Source of the DNA: a virus
Strand: one strand, 5' to 3'
Virus record (IMG/VR): IMGVR_UViG_3300006316_000001
Coordinates: 32,001 to 96,000 of that record
Length of the DNA: 64,000 nt
Made by a program: the position numbers and the translations under genes
Shown: positions 14,326 to 26,066 of the stretch, in pieces
Layout of the letters: every line of letters starts with the position of its first letter
Numbering within the stretch: position 1 is the first letter of the stretch
Notes under the pieces: generated by a model
What the model was told of the DNA's origin: nothing
Databases searched by the model: none
The model's input: only the letters and a program-made list of their open reading frames with translations

Positions 14326-14356
14326 TTTCAATAGAAGGCTAATAGGAAGGAAAGTG
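14326..14356 (+). promoter_or_regulatory. Putative late promoter / direct repeat, copy 1
   Basis: TTTCAATAGAAGGCTAATAGGAAGG (25 bp) identical to 15595-15619; both copies lie upstream of rightward units. Confidence 0.6.
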
Positions 14357-14440
14357 TGCTTTTTAAAACACGCGACCTTTCATTTTATTGATGGGATAAT
14401 TCGATTACCCCATATCAAAACTAATGAGTGGGGAAATGAC

Positions 14441-15565
14441 ATGCATTTCAATAAGAAACTGAGAGCTATTGTTCTCGAAGCCGCACCACAACTGAAGGAA
14501 TCCATTCTTGAAGTTTTGAAAGCGGATAATGGTGAGATGAAGCTTGACCTTTCACGTAAGGTTAAACTTGACGACTCACTAAAGCTTAATGTTAAAACAT
14601 TGGCGATCGGTGGTACTGGTGGTGAAGCCCTAGCTATCGATGAATTGTTAATGGCTGATATCACAGATCGTGCTATTAACCAATTCTCAGGTATTTTTAC
14701 TGACCTTGATATTTCAGTGATCAATTCAGTGAATCATCGCGGTCTTGTGGAGTTAAATTCTCTTGGTGTAACTAAAGGCGTTGAAAACGTTCCTGGTCTA
14801 CCACAGTCTATGACTCCAACTGGTGAACTTGGTCAGCTTGTATCTCAGGTAGGTAAGGCTGCTATCATTACTTTTGTTTCGCAAGAAGCAGTGCGTGATA
14901 CGATGAATGGAGATTCGGTTTCTCTATGGGATTATATAGTTGAATCGGCTGCGCGCCAAATCGTACATTACTTCTCTATTCAGATCATCGCTGGAGATGG
15001 TAAACCTGACCGTCTTCGTGGCTTGGTATCTTCTAAGCGTATTGATGATGAAGAATCACTGAAGCCTGATCATGAACGTGACCCAGATTTTCTGCAAGTC
15101 AAACTATCAGGTGTCGATGGTGATTTTGGTACTGACGATAAGACAGCAGTTGAGAACATTGTATTTTTCTTGAACTCGGTTCCTTCGAAGAATCGTGCCA
15201 ATAGTAAAGTGTATATGAACTCAACAACTCACGCTGCGATTGAACTTCTTTCTTCTACGTCACCTCGTTTACGATTTGATGAAAAGGTTGTCGATGGTCA
15301 ACTGGTTACTACCGTTAATGGTTTTGTAATCTCTCTTGACGATATGATGCCTAATATGGATATGGGCTCAATCCCTATGTTGGTTGGCGATATTAATGCC
15401 GCTATTGAGTTTGCTTGGCACGACAAACAAACTGTCGTTGACCCATTCTCGATTGACGGTGCTATTAAATATAGTCAGTTCCCGCGTGCTTCAGAGCGTA
15501 TGAAAGATAATACCGCTTTACGAGCCTTCAAAATGTCAGCTGAAGCGATTCCTGCTCCTAATTAA
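14441..15565 (+). CDS. Second HK97-fold capsid protein (paralogue of MCP 23773..25026)
   Basis: Shared blocks K.LA.GGTGGEALAIDE, KG.ENV.G, GDG.PD.LRG..SSKR, ERD.DF, VDP...DG; ATG 14441 has a GGGGA SD. Confidence 0.85.
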   Translation: MHFNKKLRAIVLEAAPQLKESILEVLKADNGEMKLDLSRKVKLDDSLKLNVKTLAIGGTGGEALAIDELLMADITDRAINQFSGIFTDLDISVINSVNHRGLVELNSLGVTKGVENVPGLPQSMTPTGELGQLVSQVGKAAIITFVSQEAVRDTMNGDSVSLWDYIVESAARQIVHYFSIQIIAGDGKPDRLRGLVSSKRIDDEESLKPDHERDPDFLQVKLSGVDGDFGTDDKTAVENIVFFLNSVPSKNRANSKVYMNSTTHAAIELLSSTSPRLRFDEKVVDGQLVTTVNGFVISLDDMMPNMDMGSIPMLVGDINAAIEFAWHDKQTVVDPFSIDGAIKYSQFPRASERMKDNTALRAFKMSAEAIPAPN

Positions 15566-15594
15566 AACTTGGGTTCAGAAACACAGTTATAGGT

Positions 15595-15625
15595 TTTCAA
15601 TAGAAGGCTAATAGGAAGGGAAGTG
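15595..15625 (+). promoter_or_regulatory. Putative late promoter / direct repeat, copy 2
   Basis: Identical 25-mer to 14326-14350; 31 bp with one mismatch. Confidence 0.6.
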
Positions 15626-15855
15626 CCGCAACCTTTTAGGTGTTAGCGCAGTTACATTATCACTACTGACTTTGACCCTTCAAACTATGGTGAACAATTC
15701 TGGGATGTCTAATTGAGCGTGATAAGCTCGACCCGAACATGAAAAATTCCCAGAGCCGTAGACCCCCATTTACGACGAGTGTGTTGGGGAATGCCTCGTC
15801 GTATCTTACCTTTGAACACTTTTCCCCTTCGGGTTGAGTATCCAAAGGTAAGGTT

Positions 15856-16335
15856 ATGAAAAGAATAACAAACAACCAAAAAGAAATGTGGAGACTTTTC
15901 CTCCACGATAAGCAGAAAGGGATATGCCCACTTTGTGGAACTTATATTTCTCTCTGTAATGAAGACGGTAAGGATGAGTCCGTATTGGACCATGACCATG
16001 ATACAGGTCGTATCCGTGCCGTTCTCCATCGCAGCTGTAACTCTGCTGAGGGTAGAATTCTGAACTTCGCTGATAAGCGGTGTCGGAGTGAAGACCCTAA
16101 ATCGTTCTTGGTCAACATGGTGAAATATTGGGAAGCTGATTACAGTCATCACCCATTCCACCCTGACCATACTATTGAGGAAGAAGATGAACGTCTGAAA
16201 TTGAAGCGCAAACTGAAGAACTTGAAGGCAGCACATGCCATCGATAAAACCAAAAAGCGCATCGCTGAATTGTCAGAAATCATCAAAGCGAGTATCGAAC
16301 TTGTTCCTCCACCTTCTGAATGGTTTAAAAAGTGA
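15856..16335 (+). CDS. Endonuclease VII family (His-Me) nuclease
   Basis: QKGICPLC ... VLDHDHDTGRIRAVLHRSCNSAEG. Confidence 0.88.
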   Translation: MKRITNNQKEMWRLFLHDKQKGICPLCGTYISLCNEDGKDESVLDHDHDTGRIRAVLHRSCNSAEGRILNFADKRCRSEDPKSFLVNMVKYWEADYSHHPFHPDHTIEEEDERLKLKRKLKNLKAAHAIDKTKKRIAELSEIIKASIELVPPPSEWFKK

Positions 16336-16342
16336 GTGCACT

Positions 16343-16576
16343 ATGAATGGTAAAATTCCTGAGCGTGGCTATTTCGGTAGTAGCTCGAAGATGCTTGCAC
16401 TCACTGATGATTTCATTTCTGGTATCCGTCAGAAATGTAAAGAGCGCAAGTTGAAATTCAGCTTCCAGAAGAAAGACGATTACACAACCGATTTCCAAAT
16501 TGGTTATGATCTATATCGTTTGTCTAATAATGGTACGAGCGCATCGACCCAATTTTTGGGCACAATGAAATTCTAG
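16343..16576 (+). CDS. Hypothetical protein
   Basis: MNGKIPERG ORF between endo VII and tRNA. Confidence 0.45.
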   Translation: MNGKIPERGYFGSSSKMLALTDDFISGIRQKCKERKLKFSFQKKDDYTTDFQIGYDLYRLSNNGTSASTQFLGTMKF

Positions 16577-16651
16577 GACGGTTAGCTCAGTAGGTAGAGC
16601 AGTGGACTGTTAATCCATTGGCCACAGGTTCAAGTCCTGTACTGTCCGCCA
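16576..16651 (+). tRNA. tRNA-Asn(GUU)
   Basis: Cloverleaf: GGACGGT/ACTGTCC acceptor, anticodon arm GTGGA-CTGTTAA-TCCAT, T-arm ACAGG-TTCAAGT-CCTGT, G73, encoded CCA. Confidence 0.93.
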
Positions 16652-17195
16652 GTTTCGGTAAAGTATCTCACCTGATCAGTTAGTGAAAATCCGAAGTCAC
16701 CTTTTAAGAATCTAGAGTCTATGAAGGTGATGGAGCGGGGCATCTCCTAAACTGCCCAACAATGTTGCATTAAATGAAGTTCCTGACAGTCAGGAAGTGA
16801 ATGTTCACTACTGGACAGCTTCATTTAATCATCGCTTTCTTAGCTGAGTTGGTTTAGTGGGACTCAGACCCAAGAGCCATTTCAAAATATGATTTGCAAA
16901 AAGAAAACACCTCCACAAACTAGGATATCCGAGTGGTATAAATGGTGCGGTAAAAGTCCGAAGTATCCGCGAATTAATTTCATGCATCCTGAGATTTACA
17001 GGCTTCACGAAATCATGTGTGTAAGAGCAGGTCGTTTCGCCCCCAAACGTTGTGTGGGGCATAATTTAAGCATTCTTCAACCACTTATAGTTGGCCACCG
17101 TATTGTGGTGTCTCACTGGAGAGTGTTTAAATTATCTACATTCAGTTCGCCAGAAGTAACTTTTCAAAAGTGCGGTGGTGCTGAATGTTTCATTT
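16652..17195 (+). ncRNA. Candidate large structured non-coding RNA(s) between two tRNAs
   Basis: Continuous series of stems, e.g. 11-bp 16769-79/16819-29, 16-bp 17061-76/17120-35 with two G-U pairs, 8-bp 17138-45/17181-88, plus loop-loop complementarity. Confidence 0.55.
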
Positions 17196-17273
17196 GTGCC
17201 TAAAGCTCATTAGGTATGAGCCGTCGCCTCATAAGCGAAGGGTAGATGGGTTCGAATCCCTCTAGGCGCACCA
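17196..17273 (+). tRNA. tRNA with CAU anticodon (Ile2 favoured over elongator Met)
   Basis: GTGCCTA/TAGGCGC acceptor, TCGC-CTCATAA-GCGA anticodon arm, GGG-TTCGAAT-CCC T-arm, ACCA end; C4-G69 and C5-G68 pairs as in TilS substrates; no initiator features. Confidence 0.85.
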
Positions 17274-17302
17274 CTCCAATGTTTGACTATTCAGAGGTAT
17301 CT

Positions 17303-17533
17303 ATGAAGACTATCGAACAATTGGTCAAGCATATGAAAGAAACATATGATGTGACCATCACTCCTGAAATGCAAAGCCGCATCGAAGGAATTAGAAAACC
17401 GACTAGCAAAACCGATTTTCCAGGAATCACGTTGATCGCTCCATATCGTGGCCAGTTTGGTGTACATCGTATCATCGAAAAGGATGAATGCATCTTTTCT
17501 ATATCTGATACATTTCTGACCGCAATTAAATGA
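17303..17533 (+). CDS. Hypothetical protein
   Basis: GAGGT SD before MKTIEQ; the longer ORF call overlaps the tRNA. Confidence 0.55.
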   Translation: MKTIEQLVKHMKETYDVTITPEMQSRIEGIRKPTSKTDFPGITLIAPYRGQFGVHRIIEKDECIFSISDTFLTAIK

Positions 17534-17543
17534 GGATTTAACG

Positions 17544-17957
17544 ATGTCTCTTGATCAAAAACACCCAGATTACGCAAAACATGTTCTGATCACTAAAGGT
17601 GATGGGAAAGTTACAGCTTCAAACCTTTACATTTTCACTACTCGAAAGGAACGTCGCGGGTACTTTATCTGTGATAGTGAAGGTAATCCGCTGGAACCGC
17701 AAGTGATTAACGATAAGATCTCTGAGCCTTCAGTTCCTGAGATCACTACACAACCGATGCCTGACCTTCAGACATCTGATGTTGAAATCACTACACAGGC
17801 AACTCCTGAACTTGAAGTGAAAGAACCTGAGATCGAAGTCAAAGTCGATGAATCGGCTGTACCTGAAGACCTTGTTTGCCCTCATTGTGAAGCCAAAGCT
17901 CGCACTGAATCTTCATATTTGAAGAATCATGGCGACAACTGCTCAATGAAGGTGTAA
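17544..17957 (+). CDS. Hypothetical protein with C-terminal CPHC..H.DNC zinc finger
   Basis: GAGGA SD; PE-rich linker; CPHCEAK...NHGDNC. Confidence 0.65.
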   Translation: MSLDQKHPDYAKHVLITKGDGKVTASNLYIFTTRKERRGYFICDSEGNPLEPQVINDKISEPSVPEITTQPMPDLQTSDVEITTQATPELEVKEPEIEVKVDESAVPEDLVCPHCEAKARTESSYLKNHGDNCSMKV

Positions 17958-18014
17958 GTTTGGTGTTGGGGGTAGTTTCCTCGCCCTCAGCGCCCTTTTG
18001 CCTAGGAGTGTGTT

Positions 18015-18410
18015 ATGATACCTGTTAAGTGTGTCGCTCCAGGATGTCGAACCATCGTTCGTGATCCAGGGCATAGTCGGTGCGAGCTCCACCGCAAAAA
18101 GCAAAAAGGGCATGCCAATAAGGTTCGCGCTGAACAGAGAAAAGTGCAGAACAAAGCGAAGTCCTTTATATACAATACAGCATCATGGAAACGTTTGTCT
18201 ATTAAGAAGAGAACCGTTGATCCATTTTGTGAAGAATGTCTACTCCAGAATCCGGTAATCTATAAACAGGCTGACGTGGTCGACCATATTGTCGAACTTA
18301 CTGATGGTGGTGAGCCATATCTTTGGACCAACCTCAGATCCCTCTGTCACGCTTGTCACAACCGGAAAACTGCTCAAGAAAAGAAAAAGCGAAAGCGCAA
18401 TATTGTGTAG
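18015..18410 (+). CDS. Packaging-associated HNH endonuclease (HK97 gp74-like)
   Basis: N-terminal C..PGC..RCELH, W.RL, PFCEEC, VVDHIVE..DGG, NLRSLCHACHNRKT. Confidence 0.9.
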   Translation: MIPVKCVAPGCRTIVRDPGHSRCELHRKKQKGHANKVRAEQRKVQNKAKSFIYNTASWKRLSIKKRTVDPFCEECLLQNPVIYKQADVVDHIVELTDGGEPYLWTNLRSLCHACHNRKTAQEKKKRKRNIV

Positions 18411-18461
18411 TGTCGTTCATCCCTTTGCGAACGGCACTACACAAACAATCGAGGATTTATT

Positions 18462-19346
18462 ATGTACATTAAAATAGGTATGCGTGAAATCGAACTTGAT
18501 CTTGACGCAAAATACCATGTGTATGGTGAAAACATCGATGCGCAAGCTGTTGTCGAAATGGACTTTGAGCATCTCAACTGGTTAGACCAACGTATTGTGT
18601 CGCAGAGCATCAACCTCAATCAGGAAATTTCAATACTATTCCATCCGGAAGTTGTCTCTAGCTTGGAGACTGAAATTGAGAACAGTCCTTTTTGGGAGAA
18701 AAACCGTTTCGAAGCTTTAGCCGTATTCAGACGTCTTCAACAGAAGACACCGGATGCAAAAGAAGACAAGCAGAAACGGAAGATGCTGAAGGAAGTTGAT
18801 TTGAAAGAATCCAAGTACGTTCAGAAACGCTTCAGAGTCGTGAATATGCTGGTGTCCCGAGGGTATGAACGCCCTGACGCTATGGAATATTTGACCGCAG
18901 TTATTGAACAGAAAGGTTCAGGCGTCATGAACTTGAAGCCAGCTGAGATATGTGATTTCGTTGACATATTCACTGGTGCAGTTCAAGATCCAAATGAAAC
19001 CCAGTATCATACACGTGATGATACTCGTCCTTGCACGTTGTACTATTTACAGTTCACTCACCAACAAACGGGTGAGACGTTCAAGAAAATAGGTATAACT
19101 GTGAGACCATTGGCTGAGAGATTTGTATTGGACGTTAAGACATTCGATCTTGACATTATCCATACAGTGGAACTTCCGGCTAATGAAGCAAAAGACATCG
19201 AAGCGGCTATCAAGAAAGAGTTTAAGCCATACAAGTACACCCCTGAAACCAAATTGCGTAAAGGTGGTGATACTGAATGCTTCACTGATGAACTTATTGA
19301 TGCGTCCGTCATGAAGATGATGGGCAGAAACAAAGTTTCATTGTAG
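18462..19346 (+). CDS. Protein with C-terminal GIY-YIG/T5orf172-like domain
   Basis: TLYYLQF...FKKIGIT....ERF ... EA..IE..IK ... GGDTECF. Confidence 0.7.
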   Translation: MYIKIGMREIELDLDAKYHVYGENIDAQAVVEMDFEHLNWLDQRIVSQSINLNQEISILFHPEVVSSLETEIENSPFWEKNRFEALAVFRRLQQKTPDAKEDKQKRKMLKEVDLKESKYVQKRFRVVNMLVSRGYERPDAMEYLTAVIEQKGSGVMNLKPAEICDFVDIFTGAVQDPNETQYHTRDDTRPCTLYYLQFTHQQTGETFKKIGITVRPLAERFVLDVKTFDLDIIHTVELPANEAKDIEAAIKKEFKPYKYTPETKLRKGGDTECFTDELIDASVMKMMGRNKVSL

Positions 19347-19401
19347 AATTAACAGAAGGTCATTTAGATGGCCTTTGATTAATTTTGCTAAGGATATTGT
19401 T

Positions 19402-25096: not shown

Positions 25097-25426
25097 ATGT
25101 CTAAAACATATGAAGGTACAAATCCGGCTGTCGATCACACGAACGCGGCAACGGTTCCGGCTGGTGTTACTATAGCAGAAAACATTGACTTTGACGGTCA
25201 AGCTCGCGGCATTGATGAAATTGCTGTGCAACTTGACGCCATTTTCGATCATGCTGTAGCTGGCACTATGACAGTCGAACACAAAGCTCAATACGCTAAT
25301 CTGATGCGTCAACTTGGTACAGTTCTACAGAACACTTCAATTGAAGGTTTACGTGGCAAAGCGACTGGCGCGACTCCAGCAGCAGGTTCACTATCCGAAT
25401 CTCTTGCTGTGATCTTTGCTCTGTAA
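25097..25426 (+). CDS. Putative head-associated/decoration protein
   Basis: Directly after MCP, GGAG SD, MCP-like codon bias, own terminator. Confidence 0.5.
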   Translation: MSKTYEGTNPAVDHTNAATVPAGVTIAENIDFDGQARGIDEIAVQLDAIFDHAVAGTMTVEHKAQYANLMRQLGTVLQNTSIEGLRGKATGATPAAGSLSESLAVIFAL

Positions 25427-25451
25427 TTGAGTTTCCTGATTACAAAAAATG

Positions 25452-25489
25452 AAGCCCACTGGTCGCTTAGAGCACTAGTGGGCTTTTTT
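25452..25489 (+). terminator. Rho-independent terminator
   Basis: AAGCCCACT..../AGTGGGCTTTTTT. Confidence 0.8.
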
Positions 25490-25504
25490 GTTTAGGGGGT
25501 TCTG

Positions 25505-26066
25505 ATGAGAACAAAAATAATTTCTGTGGATATGTCGGAAGACATAGTAGGCACAGATGAAGCTATGCAGTCATTCTCGAATTGAGGATGACTACGACAT
25601 TGAGCTTGTTCAAATCCAAGTTGCTGCTGCGACTGATCTGGTTTCAAAATGGTTGAATCGGAAGTTGTTCCCTACTGATATGGTGGGTTCTATACCAACA
25701 TACCGCAAGAAGATTAATCTTCCTTATCCTCCAATACATTCCGTTTCGAAGGTCACTATTGAGGATGACGATGGGAATGAGATGACACTCACAGAAGGCG
25801 TTGATTATGTATTCGACGACATCAGTGAACAAGTTATTTTCCGAGTGATTCCCCCACAGAATACCCGCAATAACGTCAAGGTGCATTTCTCATGCGGCTA
25901 CCAAACCGCTGAAGAAGTTCCTCAAGCTATTAGGCATGCTATCAAACAGACATTCGCCACATTGTACGAGAATCGTGAAGATACCGTTATTGGTGCGTCT
26001 GTGAATGAAGTGCCACTCAAGACTCAACGTCTGATTGGTGCGTATCGTATTAAGGCGATCTCATAA
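25505..26066 (+). CDS. Head-tail connector (gp6/phiE125 gp8-like) with an apparent +1 frameshift near 25568-25571
   Basis: C-terminal VPQAIRHAI....ATLYENRE; N-terminal IVGTDEAM lies in a different frame starting at SD-preceded ATG 25505. Confidence 0.75.

Follow-up and report, generated by a model that had tools for sequence, protein, structure and literature searches.

The spacer between two tRNA genes of a marine phage is a real, non-coding and partly structured element, and plausibly a new large phage RNA delimited by tRNA punctuation. The reading that we favor, tentatively, is that of a putative modular non-coding RNA released by processing of the tRNAs on either side of it.

The window analyzed here is a stretch of 64,000 nt corresponding to bases 32001-96000 of a 106,815-bp IMG/VR virus record that is rated complete. 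Its capsid protein and TerL are 31% and ~53% identical, respectively, to those of the nearest isolates (Vibrio phages henriette 12B8, V6Aob and 2.058.O). These distant identities suggest an uncultured marine phage from a sparsely sampled lineage.

Position of the spacer in a phage operon

The spacer lies in a + strand operon with the order EndoVII, a 113-aa ORF, tRNA-Asn, spacer, tRNA-CAU, two small ORFs, an HNH endonuclease, an endonuclease-like gene and TerL. The features that frame it are the following:

15595..15625, + strand: promoter-like direct repeat of 31 nt (second copy at 14326-14356; copies 97% identical)
15856-16335, + strand: EndoVII (Pfam PF02945)
end abutting tRNA-Asn, + strand: 113-aa ORF (orf113), which follows EndoVII
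16576..16651, + strand: tRNA-Asn (GTT) with encoded CCA, the 5' boundary of the spacer (ARAGORN and Rfam, 73.7 bits)
17196..17273, + strand: tRNA-CAU (anticodon CAT, called Met by ARAGORN), its CCA encoded, the 3' boundary of the spacer (ARAGORN and Rfam, 39.9 bits)

ARAGORN and Rfam agreed on the positions of both tRNAs, so that the exact bracketing of the spacer claimed in an earlier note on this DNA was confirmed, and the tRNA ends place the spacer at exactly 16652-17195 (544 nt). These are the sole tRNAs of the 106.8-kb genome, even when RF00005 was searched at E <= 10. No terminator-like site was found on the + strand from 15500 to 18500, and neither a sigma-70-like promoter nor a terminator-like site was found on the + strand within the spacer. 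The copies of the 31-nt repeat precede a capsid paralogue (14326-14356) and the EndoVII-tRNA operon (15595-15625), and the repeat is a candidate phage promoter. A transcript carrying EndoVII, orf113, both tRNAs and the spacer probably starts at the copy at 15595, whose promoter role is presumed. Since tRNAs stand at both ends and no promoter- or terminator-like site lies inside, tRNA processing would be able to release the spacer RNA.

The tRNA cassette sits inside an endonuclease-rich island (window 15856-19346), whose members are EndoVII (PF02945), the HNH endonuclease (PF01844) and a 294-aa protein matching endonuclease phrog_681. A 137-aa ORF has a zinc-ribbon-like C-terminal end and weak matches to endonuclease PHROGs. 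This ORF also contains a tandem 44-45-nt repeat (17725-17813, 70% identical) that encodes a repeated acidic or threonine-rich peptide.

The Rfam scan called for in the earlier note matched no known RNA family to the spacer. At gathering scores, Rfam 15 returned only the two tRNAs. At E <= 10 (16400-17500), the spacer gave only chance-level matches (mir-3660, ClpQY_promoter, snR4 and GHRLOS), all far under gathering scores. For GOLLD (RF02032, a model of the conserved 3' region with a gathering score of 150 bits), 10 candidates were scored genome-wide, none of them at E <= 10, and the E <= 10 scan of 16400-17500 gave no GOLLD match either. For ROOL (RF03087, gathering score 99.1 bits), no match was found at E <= 10 genome-wide; the control genomes were unmatched too and, thus, this direct search has little power by itself. 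A scan of the region with 4227 Rfam families also gave no ROOL match.

Folding of the spacer

The spacer is made up of two structured modules and a central linker, with the following parts:

16652..16867, + strand: 5' structured module (z -2.85, compensatory changes in relatives)
16653-58/16691-96, + strand: P1, which encloses P1a (16666-71/16679-84)
16697-704/16723-30, + strand: P2, with P2a (16707-09/16718-20)
16732-35/16744-47, + strand: P3 (GGAG/CTCC, 4 bp), with a possible pseudoknot partner (16738-42/16753-57)
16769-79/16819-29, + strand: P4, closing a three-way junction with P4a (16780-85/16791-96) and P4b or P4b'
16797-800/16805-08, + strand: P4b, with the alternative P4b' (16802-07/16812-17)
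16844-49/16862-67, + strand: P5 (CTGAGT/ACTCAG), with a 12-nt loop (16850..16861) that is the insert site in relatives
16868..17038, + strand: central A-rich linker (z +0.51, few changes between relatives)
16889..17203, + strand: 104-aa ORF, rejected as a gene, which runs 8 nt into tRNA-CAU
17039..17195, + strand: 3' structured module (z -4.95, helix length beats all shuffles)
17039-43/17056-60, + strand: P7, in the 3' module
17061-79/17117-35, + strand: P8, a long hairpin of 19 bp with three G-U pairs, plus P8a (17080-85/17104-09)
17138-45/17181-88, + strand: P9, which ends 7 nt ahead of tRNA-CAU

Every local stem listed in the earlier note was found in the sequence. The 11-bp stem at 16769-79/16819-29 is perfect, and a Watson-Crick helix of this length was attained by 1% of 200 dinucleotide shuffles. 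A stem put at 16 bp with G-U deviations does exist and does contain G-U pairs, but it is longer than described; at 19 bp, P8 lies beyond all 200 dinucleotide shuffles (maximum 16).

Folding energies were likewise compared with dinucleotide shuffles, a check that the earlier note had proposed. The full spacer (MFE -154 kcal/mol, z -3.18 on the + strand), the 5' module (16652-16870, z -2.85) and the 3' module (17039-17195, z -4.95, with 0 of 200 shuffles as good) all folded better than the shuffles, but the middle 171 nt (16868-17038) did not, as 142 of 200 shuffles folded equally well (z +0.51). The description of the spacer as largely base-paired therefore fails for its middle third, which is also where the GGATA/TATCC stem sits. 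The minus strand of the spacer folded more weakly than the + strand (z -2.06).

Three long-range pairings had also been proposed, namely a loop-loop contact, GAGTGGT/ACCACTT and ATGATTT/AAATCAT. The spacer contains 24 complementary 6-mers at long range compared to 31 expected from dinucleotide shuffles, and four 7-mers compared to 8 expected. Since such matches are rarer than in shuffles, the proposed tertiary contacts carry no weight, and pairings at chance level give no sign of the parts working together as a single molecule. GAGTGGT/ACCACTT also acquires an A-G mismatch in two relatives, through 17085 T>G. With an unstructured middle third, long-range pairs at chance and substitutions that do not favour the full-length MFE structure, a single continuous ornate fold with tertiary contacts is not supported.

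The folding of the spacer is strong yet not unique in the genome, and several nearby coding windows fold just as well. Among 475 sampled 200-nt windows of the genome, 4.4% matched the score of the 5' part and 1.3% that of the 3' part; in the operon, 15601-16100, 17901-18100 and 18401-18600 fold about as strongly. The most negative z values of the genome sample (20 shuffles each) were obtained at the start of the second capsid gene (14401-14600, -6.6), directly before TerL (19201-19400, -5.5), after the main capsid gene (25401-25600, -5.3) and in the interval between HNH and the next gene (18401-18600, -4.8). These strongest-folding windows could be regulatory or processing structures.

No tRNA remnant was found in the spacer by ARAGORN at 85% of its thresholds or by RF00005 at E <= 10, and pseudo-tRNA remnants were rejected on these relaxed searches. 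ARAGORN at 75% of its thresholds gave only two calls, both on the minus strand. Two readings made by eye, of 16841-16857 as D-arm-like and of P1/P1a as 'armless tRNA-like', found no tool support.

Two short motifs were also noted. The unpaired linker contains CACCTCC at 16909-16915, the anti-Shine-Dalgarno core of 16S rRNA, with 16909 A>G in the relative X5 described below. Any given 7-mer is expected in ~3% of 544-nt sequences and, thus, this match may be due to chance. In P2, AAGGTGAT (16724-31) is Shine-Dalgarno-like.

Near-identical relatives, the insert and the substitutions

Near-identical relatives were obtained from marine metagenome runs, four of which were compared at the locus. Contigs of two runs from different studies, X3 and X5, span the full spacer, and runs X6 and X7 reach only the flanks and tRNA. 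The comparison covers 3-4 near-identical variants, ~93% or more identical, with X3 and X5 reconstructed from difference lists.

Both X3 and X5 carry ~275 extra nt inside the 12-nt loop of P5, with both stem arms intact. The insert occupies contig positions 437 to 712 in X3 and 569 to 844 in X5, between window positions 16857 and 16852, and lengthens the spacer to ~820 nt, compared to 544 nt in the window. Two ENA proteins of 151 aa, P0001 and P0004, read through the end of the insert into the 104-aa ORF. Together with X3 and X5, they place the long form in at least 3-4 independent assemblies, which makes the phage of the window a short variant. The ~820-nt form is carried by most of the relatives found; the window has the short form, as runs X1 and X2 probably do. 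An insertion in a hairpin loop that keeps both arms is as expected of a modular RNA. The sequence GTTTA is common to both sides of the junction and, therefore, the short form may be a microhomology-mediated deletion. Another small indel was seen 3' of tRNA-CAU, where P0003, an ENA variant of the 76-aa ORF at window 17303-17533, is without the seven residues GQFGVHR.

No divergent homologue of the spacer was found among phage records, IMG/VR or JGI metagenomes. In a blastn search of the locus against 50,697 phage records, the tRNAs were the only matches. IMG/VR was scanned with the capsid and TerL, with a TerL alignment, with P0001 and with two DNA patterns from the spacer, which gave nothing, or only relatives 28-33% identical. 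Scans of JGI metagenomes with a variant-invariant 23-mer and with P0001 gave no match; both collections may lack close relatives. In the nearest GenBank relatives by TerL (~53% identity: V6Aob, henriette 12B8 and 2.058.O), the tRNAs are located elsewhere. Against V6Aob and henriette 12B8, blastn of the spacer gave chance matches only (E >= 0.16), and the cassette is absent. In N4-like phages of Vibrio and Pseudoalteromonas that have similar tRNAs, the tRNA genes are tightly clustered and no comparable spacer is present.

Upstream of TerL, henriette 12B8 has 1.29 kb without annotated genes or convincing ORFs (L003:7598-8890), and V6Aob has 0.86 kb without an annotated gene (L002:8158-9022). These two stretches showed no Rfam match and no similarity to the spacer. 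ARAGORN also called an Ile(TAT) tRNA in relatives (L002:432-524 of V6Aob; W02:103961-104050) with a length of 90-93 nt. A tRNA-Ile of this size is unusual, and a long variable arm or an insertion may account for it.

Covariation among homologues, a check named in the earlier note, was examined in these few variants. In the window-only MFE structure, two A-U pairs are compensated to G-C in relatives (16707A>G with 16720T>C and 16777A>G with 16821T>C), the second of them in the 11-bp stem (P4). The null mean for such double changes is 0.12, so that P(>=2) = 0.005, a value that applies to random placement and few near-identical variants. Broken pairs, on the other hand, were no better than the null: 7 pairs were broken in the full-length MFE structure compared to 6.6 expected, and the substitutions do not favour this structure.

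A third double change, 16732G>A with 16747C>T (G-C to A-U), occurs in both relatives and fits the 4-bp P3. Covariation in P3 is only suggestive, since the helix was picked after seeing the data and the structure-agnostic test is powerless for 4-bp helices (null mean 1.2). The loop of P3 could pair with TGCCC as a predicted H-type pseudoknot. Other substitutions are also compatible with helices. The X5 changes at 16666, 16670 and 16681 turn the interrupted P1a into a perfect 6-bp helix, and P8a gains a G-U pair through 17085 T>G. The change 16808 C>T gives a G-U pair in P4b, or falls at a loop position of the P4b' hairpin, which fits all three variants. One-sided changes yielding G-U on the + strand are those at 16670, 16808 and 17085, and the only clear pair-breaking change is at 16781. 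The G-U outcomes, together with the better folding energy of the + strand, point to an RNA on the tRNA strand and not to a DNA palindrome.

Divergence differs along the spacer. The 5' module diverges at 6.5%, which equals the neutral rate. The linker has 4 substitutions in 171 nt, compared to 6.5% at the third codon positions of the flanking genes, and the 3' module has 2 in 157 nt (p = 0.019 vs third positions). Over 16868-17195, divergence is 3.6-fold below that at neighbouring third codon positions (p = 0.012), at 1.8% overall. The 3' module varies too little to show any covariation. Taken together, the substitutions provide some evidence of selection on helices, at least two of them.

Alternative explanations and comparison with known RNAs

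That the ORF at 16889-17203 (104 aa), or its 151-aa P0001 form, is the gene of a small, basic and cysteine-rich protein is extremely doubtful. The window and two ENA variants do keep the frame open, and a divergence of 1.8% would also be compatible with a constrained gene. However, the X5 copy has an extra T after 16892, which shifts the frame, and a stop codon at 16970 (C>T, CGA to TGA); this breakage upheld the view of the earlier note that the spacer is non-coding. Across the variants, the ORF has seven changes, at codon positions 3, 3, 1, 3, 2, 2 and 2, so that the third position accounts for 3/7 and positions 1 or 2 for 4/7. In the two flanking ORFs, third positions account for 10/12 changes (6.5% vs 0.65% per site). 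The codon-usage score of the ORF is -0.02, compared to 0.47 +/- 0.14 for the long genes of this phage. It lies below every 105-codon chunk of those long genes and outside the range of the phage's own genes, and the small neighbours score 0.11-0.49. A ribosome-binding site is not clearly readable, and the ORF ends inside a tRNA. No Pfam or PHROG match was found, tblastn against phages gave no match, and a full HMMER search over 1.84 billion representatives returned only the near-identical P0001 and no distant homologue.

The main alternative is that the hairpins of the spacer act in cis and independently of one another, in processing or stabilizing a polycistronic transcript that is cut apart by tRNA excision, with no trans function and no single large fold. 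P8 and P8a (19+6 bp) would be an RNase III site as in T7-like phages, and P9 and P1 would give the leader and trailer of the tRNAs their shape or guard new 3' ends. All of the supported structure is local, the middle third lacks structure and the same operon folds similarly at the three places named above. Also, P8 and P8a form ~25 bp with a 7-nt bulge between them, which we take to be similar in form to phage RNase III sites. We consider this explanation unlikely but of some substance, since 544-820 nt far exceeds the need of such signals, the linker is conserved although unstructured, the genome's sole two tRNAs lie exactly at the ends and the 5' module has a three-way junction instead of simple hairpins. 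If the spacer held only processing hairpins, it would be an ordinary feature of a phage operon. The spacer might instead be decaying, functionless filler in a plastic endonuclease-rich island, with remnants of a lost gene or tRNA and partly fortuitous stems. The neighbours of the cassette do include EndoVII, HNH and a further endonuclease-like gene, the closest sequenced relatives are without the cassette, and it shows a large indel polymorphism; its 5' module is at neutral divergence, and 16841-16857 resembles a tRNA D-arm by eye. Decay is, however, quite improbable given that the relaxed ARAGORN (85%) and RF00005 (E <= 10) searches found no tRNA-like remnant, pairs were kept by compensatory changes (P = 0.005), the 3' part is constrained (p = 0.012) and the 3' module, at z -4.95, contains a 19-bp helix beyond all shuffles.

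It is very unlikely that the spacer acts in cis at the DNA level, for example as a packaging (cos/pac) site or as a replication origin, with inverted repeats read in dsDNA. In favour of this idea, HNH lies 0.8 kb and TerL 2.2 kb downstream of the spacer, which contains a perfect 8+1+8 palindrome at 16780-16796. However, the X5 changes at 16781, 16787 and 16788 spoil the symmetry of this palindrome, and two of them fall in the loop of the RNA hairpin. In addition, the G-U pairs of the stems would read as A-C mismatches on the opposite strand, 37-39 nt separate the arms and the + strand folds better than the - strand.

Under the favored reading, that of a modular non-coding RNA released by tRNA punctuation, a + strand polycistronic phage transcript would include the spacer. 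RNase P cleavage at the 5' end of tRNA-CAU (17195/17196) would set the 3' end of the RNA, and its 5' end would be set near 16652 by the endonucleolytic cleavage that releases the CCA terminus of tRNA-Asn. We infer these excision steps from general tRNA biology; co-transcription, stability and any action in trans are likewise presumed. The product would have a 5' domain of five helix groups, including the three-way junction, a conserved single-stranded A-rich linker and a very stable 3' domain of three hairpins. The P5 loop would tolerate ~275 extra nt, and the insert found there in relatives suggests that the common natural form is ~820 nt. The late-operon position and the analogy with GOLLD and ROOL suggest an RNA with a structural or scaffold role in the lytic phase, and not an antisense regulator. 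If this reading is true, it would suggest that the niche itself, with co-transcription with tRNAs and release by RNase P, is a general phage route to abundant non-coding RNAs. The natural short and long forms, without and with ~275 nt, would provide a ready-made domain-deletion pair for tests of structure and function.

According to PMC1920247, flanking tRNA structures, including tRNA-like 't-elements', are RNase P and 3'-processing signals that set RNA ends. Such tRNA punctuation is established for organelle mRNAs (the mitochondrial model), in contrast to the phage spacer, to which it is extended here by supposition.

The endonuclease-rich island at 15856-19346 is similar to the tRNA regions of T4 and T5. 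T4 RNAC and RNAD (the stable RNAs known as species 1 and 2) are encoded in the tRNA gene cluster and are matured from a tRNA precursor. They are phage non-coding RNAs of unknown function that are expressed late (PMC9697503). With ~120-140 nt, they are smaller than the spacer, whose length is four to six times theirs.

Large structured phage RNAs beside tRNAs, such as GOLLD and ROOL, are among the least understood RNAs of the bacterial world, and both were recently found to build RNA-only cages. ROOL is ~580 nt, is encoded by phages or prophages, often near tRNA islands, and its function is unknown (PMC12286853). It has multiple conserved pseudoknots, whereas the spacer has one possible pseudoknot only. 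GOLLD is a large phage or prophage RNA that adjoins tRNAs, with one marine example downstream of a Met-tRNA; its 3' region is conserved, its 5' region varies more and its linker differs in content (PMC12286853). The spacer differs from GOLLD in having tRNAs on both sides and no match to the GOLLD model, and it is known here from sequence alone. The two are alike in their phage location beside tRNAs and in size, as the ~820-nt long form is as large as GOLLD, and the conserved 3' domain, variable 5' domain and linker of the spacer give a likeness in working style only. Its anatomy and genomic niche likewise recall ROOL and the late RNAC and RNAD of T4. It is rather unlikely, but conceivable, that the spacer represents a new class of large (0.54-0.82 kb) phage RNA excised by tRNA punctuation, in which the 3' domain is conserved, the 5' domain varies and one hairpin can expand. 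Such an RNA would be a functional analogue of GOLLD and ROOL, perhaps produced late in infection to self-assemble or act as a scaffold, and unrelated to them in sequence and fold.
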